A stretch of DNA of 64,000 nucleotides from a virus, in IMG/VR virus record IMGVR_UViG_3300050343_000122, positions 32,001-96,000 of that record; one strand, 5' to 3'. The position numbers and the translations under genes were made by a program. Of this stretch, positions 8,308 through 21,234 are shown in pieces; within the stretch, counting starts at the first letter, position 1; the number at the start of each line of letters is the position of its first letter. The notes beneath the pieces were generated by a model. That model had not been told where the DNA came from and made no database searches. It was given only the letters and a program-made list of their open reading frames with translations.

Positions 8308-9450
8308 TTATGGATCTGGACAATCCTCAATGTTAGTAATACGTCCATTTGTATCAATTTTTATAAGCCAAGTTCCTGGATCAGCTGTAGATATAGACAT
8401 TTGAAACTTGTACCATTTGTTGTCTCCGTTAAATGTTTGAAGTGCTGGAAATATTACATCATATGTAAAATCATTTATTTGTGGTTCAGCAAGTGATCCA
8501 TTTTTCCATAGGAATGCAGCAAGGTCAGCATTACATAAACCAATATTTAGATTTGAACTACTAGTTATTGATCTTATACCAGCTGCAAGAGATGCACTAG
8601 GTGTTGTACTAGTAGTTGTCGTAATTGGAGTTTTAGTTGTTGTAGTACCAGTAAGTGTTACGGTAGGATTATTTAAGGAACAATCACATGTAGTAGTAGT
8701 TGTTGTTGTTGAAGAAGAGCTGGTACTAGTTGTAGTGCTAGTAGAACTAGTAGAACTAGTAGTTGTTGTTGTAACTTCTTTATAAGTATCAGCTATAAAG
8801 GAGAAGTCTACATCAACTCCTGCTCCAGTATAATTAGGACTTAGGGCACTTACAAAACTATCAGTACAGAAAGTACACACATCCTGTCCTTGATATAGTA
8901 TTCCGTCTTTTTGAATTGTATTGATAAAATTGTAAACTCCGACTCTGTTACTATCTATTGTAGCAGAAACTACATCTCCTGGTAAGATTTGAATAGTTCC
9001 ACTTTGTGAAGATGCATTACCTGTAATAGTTGCATCTACAACATTAGTTCCATTAACATCTATTTTTAAGTTACTGCTCTGTGGATCTGCCGCAATTAGA
9101 GAACTTGGAGTGTTTGTTATCAACTCCCAATTAAATCTATTAGGTGGTTGATCTGTTGTAGTGGTTGATGTTGATGTTGAAGTACTTGTAGTAGTTGATG
9201 TACTAGAACTACTTGTTGTAGTTGTTGTAGGACAATTAGTTGGTAGGTCAATACAATTATCACATGTACCAACAGAGCAGACTCTTATAATAGTTGCTCC
9301 TGTAGGAAGTTCAATAACATATCCATTAGTTAAAGTTAAAGCAGGAACTTGTGTTTGAAATGGATTAGTATATCCATCTGCATCTGAGTATAAATCAAAA
9401 GGTCCAGCAGAGCCTCCTGGGGGTATGGTTATGTTTATTTGTATCAACAT
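8308..9450 (-). CDS. Putative virion decoration protein: shared module, Thr/Ser linkers, Ig-like domain, C-terminal domain
   Basis: GPFDLYSDADGYTNPF; three Thr/Ser-rich tracts. Confidence 0.55.
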   Translation of the reverse strand: MLIQINITIPPGGSAGPFDLYSDADGYTNPFQTQVPALTLTNGYVIELPTGATIIRVCSVGTCDNCIDLPTNCPTTTTTSSSSTSTTTSTSTSTSTTTTDQPPNRFNWELITNTPSSLIAADPQSSNLKIDVNGTNVVDATITGNASSQSGTIQILPGDVVSATIDSNRVGVYNFINTIQKDGILYQGQDVCTFCTDSFVSALSPNYTGAGVDVDFSFIADTYKEVTTTTTSSTSSTSTTTSTSSSSTTTTTTTCDCSLNNPTVTLTGTTTTKTPITTTTSTTPSASLAAGIRSITSSSNLNIGLCNADLAAFLWKNGSLAEPQINDFTYDVIFPALQTFNGDNKWYKFQMSISTADPGTWLIKIDTNGRITNIEDCPDP

Positions 9451-9453
9451 ATC

Positions 9454-9705
9454 TTATGGTGTTGGTGTTGTTGTGGTAGTTGTAGTTTGTTCTAATACAA
9501 TATCAAAACTATTTTCACATAATGAATCTGACGTTACTCTTATTATAGTAGTAAAATCAGGAACTACAGTACTAGTATAGCCAGCTAATAAATTAACTTT
9601 AGTTACACCAGTTTCAAAAGCAGCAGTGAACCCATCTACATCTGAGAACAGATCGAAGGGTCCAGTATTGTTTCCTGCAGTTGTTAGTTTAATAAATGCT
9701 TCCAT
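9454..9705 (-). CDS. Stand-alone shared module with poly-Thr tail
   Basis: MEAFIKLTTAGNNTGPFDLFSDVDGF...TTTTTTTPTP; start moved to 9705. Confidence 0.6.
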   Translation of the reverse strand: MEAFIKLTTAGNNTGPFDLFSDVDGFTAAFETGVTKVNLLAGYTSTVVPDFTTIIRVTSDSLCENSFDIVLEQTTTTTTTPTP

Positions 9706-10016
9706 TATGATCCGCAACAAGTATTTAGTGTGTTATTTATATTTATAACTTGCTCTTTTATAGCAGAAATATCTGATGTATTAGTTGCTTGTTGAGTCTT
9801 CAATATACAAAGAAGTTCGTCAATTTTAGACAAAGCAACGTTTAAATCATCACAAGGTTCTACATTAGAACAAGGTAATATTGGTCCATTGTATGTAATA
9901 GATTTTGAATAATGTATTCCAGTTTGACATGGATCATTACTTACAGAAGTAGAACAACCACAAGTAGTGTTCACTGCTATATTTGTACAACAAGGATTAG
10001 TGGGTAAGTATGCCAT
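9705..10016 (-). CDS. Cys-rich small structural protein with coiled coil
   Basis: ITYNGPILPC motif resembles the VKYTG.D.P motif of the upstream gene; heptad-like C-terminus. Confidence 0.5.
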   Translation of the reverse strand: MAYLPTNPCCTNIAVNTTCGCSTSVSNDPCQTGIHYSKSITYNGPILPCSNVEPCDDLNVALSKIDELLCILKTQQATNTSDISAIKEQVININNTLNTCCGS

Positions 10017-10027
10017 TGTTTTTAGTA

Positions 10028-19433: not shown

Positions 19434-20000
19434 TTAAATAAAGTTTATTTGGTAGTTGTTTCCAGTACAACCACAATTTGATTTTATAAATGTATCAAGC
19501 ATATTACTAGCTTGATTGTATAGTTTTAAAGCTTCTTTCTCAGCACAGTTATTAGCAGCAGCTAATGACCCTTGAATAAAGAAGTTAATTGTATTTAAAG
19601 TAACGTTAGACTGTGTTCTCAGAGCACTGTCACACTCCATCATATTTAACTTTAAAAACGCATCGTCAAACTTTTGTTGAAGTTTATCAATACGCATTAT
19701 AGTCTTTTCTACATAATTCTTGTAGGCAGGTGCCACAGAGTATTTCAGATAGTATATACCATCTGGAATAGGTTGTTTGCATCCAGCTTCAGTAATTCCT
19801 AAAGTATCTGACGCAAAAATATTTGTTTCTAAGGGTTTGAAAGGTAAGACTTTTGTTCCAAATCCAGGTATCTCTATTTCAATCGTAGGTGATGAGACCA
19901 ACGGTGGATCATCTGGATACACTGATGCATCAGTAACTGCTAGTAAATTAACACTATAACTAGGAGGAACAATAATATCTAACTGTAAAATAGCTGACAT
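19434..20000 (-). CDS. Structural protein, probable tail hub
   Basis: 188 aa, beta N-terminal and helical C-terminal halves with CGC end; follows gene 73 as hub genes do in crAss synteny. Confidence 0.45.
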   Translation of the reverse strand: MSAILQLDIIVPPSYSVNLLAVTDASVYPDDPPLVSSPTIEIEIPGFGTKVLPFKPLETNIFASDTLGITEAGCKQPIPDGIYYLKYSVAPAYKNYVEKTIMRIDKLQQKFDDAFLKLNMMECDSALRTQSNVTLNTINFFIQGSLAAANNCAEKEALKLYNQASNMLDTFIKSNCGCTGNNYQINFI

Positions 20001-20011
20001 AAGAATTATTT

Positions 20012-20060
20012 AAAAAAAAATACCAGAGGATTGAGTATTTAATCCTCTCACCTCTGGTAT
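20012..20060 (-). terminator. Intrinsic terminator/attenuator after auxiliary capsid gene
   Basis: ATACCAGAGG...CCTCTGGTAT followed by a long T run on minus strand; alternative inner stem AGAGGATT/AATCCTCT. Confidence 0.7.
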
Positions 20061-20094
20061 TATAGGTTAGTATTGTTTTATGTAACTCTGTCTA

Positions 20095-21234
20095 TTAGGC
20101 AGCAGTAGTTGTAGTTGTAGTTGTAATACAAACATTATTATCAACAACATCTCCAAGAGCAGCCTCTAGGACAGCAGATACAGCTGTAGATAGTCCAGCA
20201 GAAGAATCTTCATTAGGTACAGCAACTATTACAATATTGTCCATGTGGATATAATCACCCCATTGGTAAGCAGCTTTGTCATATTCATTGAATCTGATTG
20301 TGTAGCTATCGTACACAGCTCCATCAGTTACATAAGACTCAAAGTTCTCATTGTAACCACCCATTCTATAAAGAGATTTTAAATACCCAGCTTGGTAGCT
20401 ATAGTAGTTAATTTCTGCTTGCTTCCATTCAGTAGATAATCCTGAAGGGTAAGTAGAATTTTGGATGATAGAAGAAGTTGCAACAATGTTACATGCATCA
20501 GCTACGATAAAGTCAGCAGTAGTAGCTGGTCCTTCGTATACAAATGCATTAAAATACATTCTGTCATATTCAAATGGGAATGCAGCGATATCACATGGTT
20601 GACCATATTGTGTTAATGGTTTTCCGTGGATTCTAAGTTTAGTTCCACCTACATTTTCAAAAGTATAGAAACTGCTGAAAGAAATATTGTCTGGATTGTT
20701 ACCAGGAGCTTTCTTGTTAAAAGCAGCAATAAGTGAATTGATTAATGCATTAGTGTCAACATCAGTACATACATCACCACCACACTCACAACATGGAGCT
20801 TGGACAGTTACTGAACGTGTAAATCCGTTGAAGTATAACGTATTAATATAATTTGAAAAAGCTCTAAGCGTTACAGTTAGTATTTCACCACATTGTACTT
20901 TGAAGTCTGTGATGTCAGTAATCTGATTAGCTGCAGTTGCACAACCAGAAACTTTATACCATTCTGTTACGTTAGAGTTACAAGATGCACCAGCTGTTGG
21001 GCATCCTTTAATTTTGTCAGATCTTTTAGATCCTTGCAAATAAGTATTTGCTCTACCTTGTGCGACATAGAAATATGGTGAATCAGCAATATCTGTAGCA
21101 TCAACTGCTGCATATGTATTGCTAAAAAAACCAACTTCACCAGCGGTCAAGTCTTGGGTAGATTTCGAACCAGAGCTAGGTATTGTAGAACCTACTGGCA
21201 CCACGAATAACGTGGTTAATGCGAATGTACTCAT
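20095..21234 (-). CDS. Probable auxiliary capsid protein (crAss gene 73-like) with C-terminal poly-Thr
   Basis: 379 aa, third gene after MCP; RSDKI and YDSYTIRF-type motifs; ends CITTTTTTTAA. Confidence 0.55.
   Translation of the reverse strand: MSTFALTTLFVVPVGSTIPSSGSKSTQDLTAGEVGFFSNTYAAVDATDIADSPYFYVAQGRANTYLQGSKRSDKIKGCPTAGASCNSNVTEWYKVSGCATAANQITDITDFKVQCGEILTVTLRAFSNYINTLYFNGFTRSVTVQAPCCECGGDVCTDVDTNALINSLIAAFNKKAPGNNPDNISFSSFYTFENVGGTKLRIHGKPLTQYGQPCDIAAFPFEYDRMYFNAFVYEGPATTADFIVADACNIVATSSIIQNSTYPSGLSTEWKQAEINYYSYQAGYLKSLYRMGGYNENFESYVTDGAVYDSYTIRFNEYDKAAYQWGDYIHMDNIVIVAVPNEDSSAGLSTAVSAVLEAALGDVVDNNVCITTTTTTTAA

Follow-up and report, generated by a model that had tools for sequence, protein, structure and literature searches.

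We analysed a 64,000-nucleotide stretch of DNA (the window), positions 32,001 to 96,000 of the IMG/VR virus record IMGVR_UViG_3300050343_000122, in which several late proteins of a crAss-like phage carry long threonine (Thr, T) and serine (Ser, S) tracts. Comparative genomics suggests that these tracts are acceptor stalks and tails on virion-associated proteins, probably O-glycosylated by soluble glycosyltransferases (GTs) of the phage, and that the particle is probably sugar-coated. We favour virion O-glycosylation because one GT-A enzyme family, phrog_4417, tracks the tract-bearing genes in unrelated phages and often directly follows one that encodes a capsid, tail-tube or fibre-like protein. 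Its member in this genome, a 339-amino-acid enzyme encoded beyond the window's end, is the prime candidate for a poly-Thr O-glycosyltransferase and would be the most economical explanation of the linkage, judging from its sequence and modelled fold. The original prediction that phage enzymes glycosylate the tracts is thus the best-supported reading, but four of the five enzymes it named are not conserved.

The source record is a single-contig virus genome of 113.5 kb. Positions below are those of the window unless marked as genome coordinates, which equal the window coordinates plus 32,000; L001 denotes the stretch beyond the window's end (L001:2094 = genome 98094).

Threonine tracts of the late proteins

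The late genes lie on the minus strand at about 1-33 kb of the window. Six of their products had been singled out as tract carriers, and every one carries the tracts at the places described:

8308..9450, minus strand: 380-residue late protein, tracts at residues 75-99, 227-254 and 277-283
9454..9720, minus strand: 88-residue stub, the same N-terminal anchor module ending in a tail of seven Thr (T7), nucleotides (nt) 9466-9486
11189..14779, minus strand: 1196-residue multidomain protein, tracts at residues 438-445, 658-721 and 868-950
14789..17551, minus strand: 920-residue protein, tracts at residues 90-105 and 883-901
18329..19315, minus strand: 328-residue protein, tracts at residues 116-139 and 154-203
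20095..21234, minus strand: 379-residue probable auxiliary capsid protein, C-terminal T7 followed by AA, nt 20104-20124

The tracts make up 2-23% of the residues of these proteins. The 380-residue protein, in which they occupy 16%, consists of an N-terminal anchor module of ~70 residues, an S/T stalk (nt 9154-9228), a middle domain, a second stalk (nt 8689-8772), a short T tract (nt 8602-8622) and a C-terminal domain; it has no Pfam or PHROG match. The 920-residue protein contains the anchor module, an S/T stalk (nt 17237-17284), a large cargo domain and a C-proximal double T tract (nt 14849-14905). A conserved N-terminal domain of ~115 residues in the 328-residue protein is followed by S/T stalks (nt 18899-18970 and 18707-18856) and a variable C-terminal cargo. 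The 1196-residue protein has tracts of 8, 64 and 83 residues between its domains (nt 13445-13468, 12617-12808 and 11930-12178). In four proteins (8308, 9454, 14789 and 18329), the first tract stands directly after a conserved N-terminal domain of 70-115 residues, and what follows is an unrelated cargo domain or nothing, as in the stub that ends in T7. The overall layout is anchor, stalk and cargo, plus simple terminal tags.

Two further features of these proteins were observed. The shared ~70-residue module heads five late proteins (window 7074-17551, minus strand; starts at 7739, 8293, 9450, 9720 and 17551) with the motif Gly-Pro-Phe/Val-Asp-Leu-Tyr/Phe-Ser, and in three of the five a poly-Thr stalk follows immediately. 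In the 1196-residue protein, the first 230 residues match the phage protease family phrog_20754 (8.5e-12); it is unusual for a structural module to contain a protease joined to other domains through Thr stalks.

Runs of at least five Thr number 27 in the genome, against a mean of 0.585 and a maximum of 4 in 200 within-protein shuffles, which excludes chance. They occur in nine of the 62 minus-strand (late) genes and in none of the 50 plus-strand genes. The tracts were also said to stand often just after a Cys, which holds: Cys accounts for 10.5% of the five residues upstream against a background of 1.2%, a nine-fold enrichment accompanied by a four-fold one of Pro, and 11 of 21 tracts have a Cys within six residues. 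The Thr codons inside the tracts are mixed ACA and ACT, as elsewhere in the genome. The Ser codon AGT, one mutation away from ACT, has a share of 0.55 inside the tracts and 0.31 elsewhere (whole genome); tract Ser positions may therefore arise from ACT Thr codons via single C-to-G changes. A slippage or microsatellite artefact was ruled out by the genome-like mix of Thr codons and by the conservation of tract positions across relatives; the tracts are a feature at the protein level and not a DNA repeat artefact.

Conservation differs along these proteins. The poly-T tail of the 379-residue protein is kept in 78 of 80 relatives, where it is often longer and split into two blocks. Among 80 relatives with homologues of the 328-residue protein, the N-terminal domain is kept, the tract (0-122 residues) and the cargo vary freely, and the tract forms the boundary between the conserved domain and the swapped cargo. 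The complete relatives compared contain 6-11 tract genes per genome.

For the 379-residue protein we found no sequence-level match in PHROG, Pfam, the Protein Data Bank (PDB) or by tblastn against phages. Its AlphaFold2 (AF2) model, with a predicted local distance difference test score (pLDDT) of 68, has as best PDB match 7qof_a (E 1e-7, TM-score 0.44-0.49), a 333-residue chain of the crAss001 icosahedral capsid other than the major capsid protein, which we take to be the crAss001 auxiliary capsid protein. The modelled fold is consistent with the earlier label of a probable auxiliary capsid protein.

A GT-A family that accompanies poly-threonine

The candidate enzyme is encoded beyond the window's end, between two small tract genes:

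genome 97631-98074, minus strand: 147-residue T/S-tract protein
genome 98094-99113 (L001:2094-3113), minus strand: 339-residue DxD GT-A enzyme, phrog_4417
genome 99140-99274, minus strand: 44-residue stub ending in T7-AP

We compared gene content in six genomes, the present one and five complete relatives, all of which keep the tracts. The 339-residue enzyme is present in all six at 50-80% identity, and tiny genes with T7-type C-terminal runs always flank its gene (6/6). Relatives with Thr tracts and no GTs had been named as a possible outcome that would speak against glycosylation; instead, both the 339-residue enzyme and the GT2 enzyme described below were found in 6/6 genomes.

The enzyme matches phrog_4417, annotated as "unknown function", at 2.6e-53. 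It has no Pfam match even at E 10 and none in NCBIfam, and a sequence search of the PDB gave nothing usable. A full HMMER scan yielded 755 family representatives at 50% clustering, and the DxD motif (D109, D111) is invariant in an alignment of 81 family sequences. The AF2 model of the enzyme has a pLDDT of 97.2, and Foldseek together with VIA-align places it in the retaining GT-A group: glycogenin matches with Z 14.3 and a root-mean-square deviation of 3.6 over 229 residues, followed by the Skp1 galactosyltransferase AgtA (Z 13.7), LgtC (13.4), UGGT (13.1), GlyE of serine-rich-repeat glycosylation (12.8) and the PBCV-1 capsid GT (11.0). No transmembrane segment is predicted. Longer homologues additionally contain GT6, GT2, GT29, GT25 or methyltransferase domains as fusions, which suggests that the family provides one step of a multi-enzyme glycan assembly.

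Among the longer homologues, one is fused to Radical_SAM and SPASM domains, a hint of a role in modifying ribosomal peptides, and others carry GT29 sialyltransferase-like or GT6 domains. In the ESM-Atlas neighbour cluster, PF23452 (HPAT) occurs in 10% of the members, and one of the 81 family members matches PF23452 at 1.3e-4. We do not claim membership of the plant HPAT family for the 339-residue enzyme, as the evidence is weak, with a single matching homologue and no match of the query itself at E 10.

A tblastn search with the enzyme found homologues in 77 cultured phage records at 27-35% identity, none of them from Mycobacterium. In a forward test, we examined seven cultured-phage lineages and counted the present lineage once, giving eight carriers of the family. 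The cultured carriers are as follows:

Enterococcus phiFL1A: stop codon of the major tail protein gene coincides with the start of the enzyme gene
Lactobacillus iLp84: T7-S-K at the C-termini of both the major capsid and the major tail protein
Lactococcus 1706: T9-T10 and then HHD at the C-termini of the capsid and major structural proteins
Lactococcus bIL285: a 210-residue protein ends in T9 followed by RHD
Staphylococcus vB-SscS-F1: major tail protein ends in T9
Chryseobacterium MA9V-3: 61- and 21-residue tracts in two genes just upstream of the enzyme gene
Lactobacillus SAC12B: no T7 run in 136 kb, the sole exception among the carriers

The major tail protein of phiFL1A ends in a 21-residue Thr/Ser run that includes 19 Thr, and its capsid-region protein gp45 also ends in Thr blocks. 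In most cases the T7 run of a carrier forms the C-terminal tail of a capsid or major tail protein. MA9V-3 was considered as a crAss relative and rejected by the capsid model (see below); because it is not crAss-type by that model, it was counted as an independent lineage. In SAC12B (MK504446.1, Herelleviridae), the phrog_4417 homologue lies at 126175-127134, in a non-structural region near holin and sigma factor genes.

Neither the family nor a T7 run was found in eight control phages (phiFL3A, phiFL4A, bIL286, bIL309, Lbo-JY46, crAss001, DAC15 and phi14:2), and the profile search recovered five of five known positives. T7 runs therefore occur in 7/8 carrier lineages and 0/8 controls (one-sided Fisher p ~7e-4), a figure that must be read with the choice of controls in mind: these were hand-picked from the same studies or hosts or from crAss-type phages and are not random, and the lineages are not fully independent.

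For the reverse test, we searched with a DNA pattern of eight or more Thr codons and retrieved 118 arbitrary IMG/VR stretches, of which 92 have the run in frame in an open reading frame (ORF). Nine of these 92 poly-T loci contain a family member, in every case encoded immediately downstream of the tract gene and on the same strand; for the other 83, no family member occurs within the short stretch examined. The nine metagenomic enzymes are 27-35% identical to the 339-residue enzyme and 30-60% to each other. Their poly-Thr partners show no homology to anything in the present genome, and the partners' tracts also tend to follow Cys. Random placement does not give such adjacency of enzyme and poly-Thr genes in nine loci.

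Genome context and accessory enzymes

The designation "crAss-like phage" in the original prediction is borne out by a match of the major capsid protein to the Pfam family Crass_capsid and by the fold match to the crAss001 capsid chain. The PF23898 model scores 108.5 bits against a cut-off of 27; it also detects crAss001, DAC15, phi14:2 and Lbo-JY46, and none of 14 control genomes. The late minus-strand module contains the following further genes:

23185-24750, minus strand: major capsid protein, crAss type, no tract (PF23898 Crass_capsid, 3.7e-31)
10028-11164, minus strand: tail-fibre protein
late minus-strand module: terminase (phrog_6681)
late minus-strand module: portal (phrog_6547)

Relatives of the capsid protein are encoded on more than 599 IMG/VR contigs, the best 80 being 89-100% identical, and several of these contigs are 111-119 kb long and rated 98-100% complete; the lineage is therefore abundant and uncultured. 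The plus strand at 33-63 kb encodes replication and nucleotide metabolism, including a DnaB-like helicase, a primase, RecA, ribonucleotide reductase and uracil-DNA glycosylase. A 101-residue SET-domain protein (40864-41169, plus strand; PF00856, 2.3e-9), possibly a protein lysine methyltransferase, is located in the same module.

The five enzymes originally proposed to act on the tracts lie on this strand:

42220..42663, plus strand: 147-residue cytidylyltransferase-fold nucleotidyltransferase (PF01467), among the six genomes only in the present one
47402..48274, plus strand: GalE-like nucleotide-sugar 4-epimerase of the short-chain dehydrogenase/reductase (SDR) type, at most accessory, in 2/6 genomes
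61120..61923, plus strand: soluble GT2 glycosyltransferase (PF00535), DDD motif at residue 107, no transmembrane segment
61920..62573, plus strand: TOD1/MUCI70 (former DUF616)-like putative glycosyltransferase, at most accessory (PF04765; phrog_26101 glycosyltransferase, 3.5e-4)
62577..62954, plus strand: DUF6165 protein, at most accessory (PF19662), among the six genomes only in the present one

Three of the family assignments were confirmed: GT2 (PF00535, 42.5 bits against a gathering score of 23.3), DUF6165 (47.7 bits) and the nucleotide-sugar epimerase, an SDR protein (PF01370, 2.7e-50, 171 bits). The epimerase scores 149 bits with the GalE model TIGR01179 and 107 bits with that of heptose epimerase, and its best PDB matches are UDP-hexose/N-acetylhexosamine (HexNAc) epimerases. 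The DUF616-like GT is marginal, at 21.8 bits against a cut-off of 21.4 and over model positions 141-294 of 314 only; it has no NCBIfam match. As for the "TagD-like cytidylyltransferase", the cytidylyltransferase fold stands (57.6 bits) but TagD does not (TIGR01518, 59 bits against a cut-off of 165). The best specific match of this 147-residue protein is heptose-1-phosphate adenylyltransferase (phrog_7878, 2.4e-32; TIGR02199, rfaE_dom_II, 68 bits), although all its specific family matches fall below their cut-offs (181.5 for TIGR02199).

It had been proposed to check whether the GT and epimerase genes co-occur with the tracts. GT2 does so in 6/6 genomes, at 35-88% identity, as the sole one of the five; the TOD1-like gene and the epimerase are found in 2/6 each, and DUF6165 and the nucleotidyltransferase in 1/6. 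Because these four occur in only one or two of six genomes that all keep the tracts, they appear to be accessories at most. No match to GT2 was found by tblastn against cultured phages, and its link with the tracts consequently comes only from the 6/6 conservation. The five enzymes are not the strongest candidates, and better ones lie beyond the window. Genomes with extra enzymes (the heptosyltransferase fusion described next, the TOD1-like protein or the epimerase) have 327-399 tract residues against 113-248 in those with only the 339-residue enzyme and GT2, which at n = 6 is suggestive.

Beyond the window's end, a second protein-directed enzyme is predicted next to a giant fibre:

genome 101707-105156 (L001:5707-9156), plus strand: 1149-residue fusion of a methyltransferase, a GT4 and a TibC/Aah-type heptosyltransferase
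genome 105153-113030, minus strand: 2625-residue (Gly-Thr-Ser)n collagen-like fibre

The C-terminal 350 residues of the fusion match TIGR04414, the NCBIfam equivalog "autotransporter strand-loop-strand O-heptosyltransferase", with 279.5 bits against a cut-off of 200 over model positions 12-370 of 374. The match to TibC (4rap) reaches 2.3e-54, compared with only 25 bits for lipopolysaccharide (LPS) heptosyltransferase I. The catalytic base Asp110 and the four iron-finger cysteines of TibC, defined by Yao et al. 2014, eLife (PMC4358343), are identical in the phmmer alignment of the fusion to 4rap (Asp110; C339, C342, C358 and C370). The bacterial autotransporter heptosyltransferases (BAHT; TibC/Aah) are a protein-directed glycosyltransferase family. 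The fusion gene is arranged tail-to-tail with the fibre gene, whose product has ~900 residues of Gly-Thr/Ser-Ser/Thr triplets, and fusion and large collagen-like fibre are present together in 3/6 genomes and absent together in 3/6. No autotransporter adhesin substrate was found alongside the BAHT domain, its neighbour being the fibre; it may act in the manner of a BAHT but on another substrate. TibC-type domains occur in four of 50,697 deposited phage records, namely three megaphage records and Microcystis phage Mel-JY01, where the protein is annotated "methyltransferase FkbM".

A phage-encoded ADP-heptose pathway was sought and rejected: GmhA, HldA and GmhB were not found among ~60 scanned ORFs, and the epimerase is GalE-like, not HldD-like. 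The 147-residue protein, which resembles HldE domain II in sequence, is the sole remaining lead towards ADP-heptose. It sits between helicase genes and could feed a heptosyltransferase.

It is possible, if on balance doubtful, that the five plus-strand enzymes act on phage DNA or on glycans of the host envelope (LPS, capsule, receptor masking) rather than on virion proteins. Their genes stand at the end of, or inside, the plus-strand replication or early-middle module, and most relatives with tracts lack four of the five. The nearest named relatives of GT2 are WcaA, PglI and exopolysaccharide enzymes, which act on lipid-linked glycans, and DNA-hypermodifying phage GTs are documented (bioRxiv 10.1101/2023.12.21.572611 and PMC13326640). 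On the other hand, the scanned ORFs of the replication module, several of which have no match of any kind, yielded no hydroxymethylase, TET/5mYOX or base-modifying enzyme. Furthermore, all five enzymes are predicted to be soluble, GT2 is conserved together with the tracts in all six genomes, and GT2 domains often occur in fusions with phrog_4417 homologues, in keeping with a two-step glycan. Such roles of the five enzymes can hold together with glycosylation of the tracts by the 339-residue enzyme.

Proposed glycosylation and known systems

Several points count against O-glycosylation of the tracts. In addition to the hand-picked controls, the 83 poly-T loci without the enzyme and the lipid-linked substrates of the relatives of GT2, the carrier SAC12B lacks T7 runs, and given this phage, the phrog_4417 family may have other acceptors or accept shorter tracts. 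Fold and gene linkage give neither the acceptor nor the donor sugar. Most tract genes of the present genome are 40-60 kb from the enzyme gene, and direct evidence of virion location exists for only two tract proteins. The phage is uncultured, and all of the support comes from sequence, fold and gene linkage.

It is unlikely, in our view, that the tracts are unmodified or modified by the host only and serve as flexible or extended spacers, as in many secreted bacterial proteins, with the GTs serving other ends. Passive linkers would be expected exactly at domain boundaries and with free lengths (0-122 residues), as observed, and the absence of T7 runs from SAC12B despite its GT-A enzyme agrees with them. 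However, spacers do not account for a GT-A gene that borders poly-Thr genes in several Firmicutes phages and nine divergent metagenomic loci, nor for the joint absence of both features from eight control phages, and the C-terminal T7-T10 tails on capsid and tail-tube proteins link nothing. Lastly, it is quite improbable that the tracts are mainly recombination joints in the DNA, whose shared (ACN)n stretches swap anchors and cargo with glycosylation as a secondary matter: the cargo after the tract does differ widely among relatives with >89% identical capsid proteins, one anchor module heads several different cargo proteins, and AGT, one mutation from ACT, is enriched among the tract Ser codons, but terminal tails have no downstream module to swap, mixed codons offer poor homology for recombination, and the enzyme linkage is left unexplained.

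If the tracts are O-glycosylated by phage enzymes, glycosylation would take place in the host cytoplasm during late infection. The GT-A enzyme would transfer the first sugar from a nucleotide sugar onto the Thr hydroxyls, and GT2 would act as a conserved second step that extends or diversifies the glycan. Strain-variable accessories, such as the TOD1-like GT, the GalE-like epimerase and the methyltransferase and GT4 domains of the fusion, may extend or diversify it further. The TibC/Aah-type domain would heptosylate Ser and Thr of the adjacent (Gly-Thr-Ser)n fibre with ADP-heptose from the host, perhaps helped by the HldE-domain-II-like nucleotidyltransferase of the phage. The cargo domains would thereby be held off the particle on stiff, extended glycosylated stalks resistant to proteases, and the tail of the auxiliary capsid protein would form a glycan fringe on the capsid. 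Only tentatively do we suggest a true glycocalyx, built by a modular, strain-variable kit in which phrog_4417 primes, GT2 and the accessories extend, the TibC-type fusion acts on the fibre and the HldE-II-like protein feeds it, with the poly-Thr tag and phrog_4417 forming a portable tag system across phages of Bacteroidota, Firmicutes and other hosts.

The pairing of enzyme and poly-Thr is also found in cultured phages of Enterococcus, Lactococcus, Lactobacillus, Staphylococcus and Chryseobacterium, which makes the idea testable at once. Should poly-Thr tags together with a dedicated GT-A enzyme prove to be a general and portable system, glycosylated particles would be widespread among phages; this would matter for how stable phages are, how they adsorb and move through mucus or biofilm matrices, and how the immune system clears them in phage therapy. 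The system would also provide a short genetically encoded tag for cytoplasmic O-glycosylation. A second lead, and a rarer one, is the TibC-type protein heptosyltransferase that the phage encodes next to a collagen-like fibre.

To our knowledge, glycosylation of phage particles by their own enzymes has been shown experimentally only in a few mycobacteriophages. There, glycosylation of the particle blunts antibody recognition. Freeman et al. 2023 (Cell Host Microbe; as summarised in PMC12363180 and PMC12582341) reported that in the mycobacteriophages Che8, Corndog and Myrna, phage-encoded GTs O-glycosylate proteins of the capsid and the tail tube, in line with the precedent named in the original prediction. 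The likeness lies in phage GTs paired with capsid or tail-tube acceptors, in cytoplasmic action before or during assembly, and in a glycan shield. In contrast, the present enzyme belongs to another family, with no Mycobacterium record among the 77 tblastn hits; the hosts differ, since the phages here are crAss-like and Firmicutes and Bacteroidota phages in which glycosylation is deduced from genes; and the acceptor is near-pure poly-Thr, which also forms inter-domain stalks of up to 83 residues (122 in relatives). We found no publication on poly-Thr tracts in phages.

Compared with TibC/Aah, the phage domain scores above the family cut-off, keeps the catalytic Asp110 and the iron-finger Cys (PMC4358343), and is likewise encoded beside a giant Ser-rich, repeat-rich surface protein. 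It differs in being phage-encoded, fused to a methyltransferase and a GT4, neighboured by a collagen-like fibre instead of an autotransporter, and rare in phages; no paper linking TibC-type enzymes to phages was found. The glycosylation of serine-rich-repeat adhesins by GtfA/B and then GT8 enzymes such as GlyE (see PMC7948813) is similarly cytoplasmic and multi-enzyme and acts on long Ser/Thr repeats of a surface fibre, and GlyE is among the nearest folds to the 339-residue enzyme. Here, by contrast, there is no accessory Sec export, the acceptors are dominated by Thr, and the initiating enzyme would be a GT-A and not the GT-B GtfA/B. Plant and algal HPAT (GT95) and SGT1/SERGT1 (GT96) are also DxD enzymes that glycosylate low-complexity peptides rich in Ser and hydroxyproline, but the plant enzymes are Golgi membrane proteins and their homology to the 339-residue enzyme is at most remote. 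In the exosporium protein BclA of Bacillus anthracis and in mucin domains, Gly-X-Thr repeats or Thr/Ser stalks are dense O-glycan carriers that form a hair-like outer layer; the enzymes are different, and the likeness is by analogy only. Virion glycosylation by phage enzymes is thus already known, and the enzyme family, the near-pure Thr tag and the hosts are what differ here.

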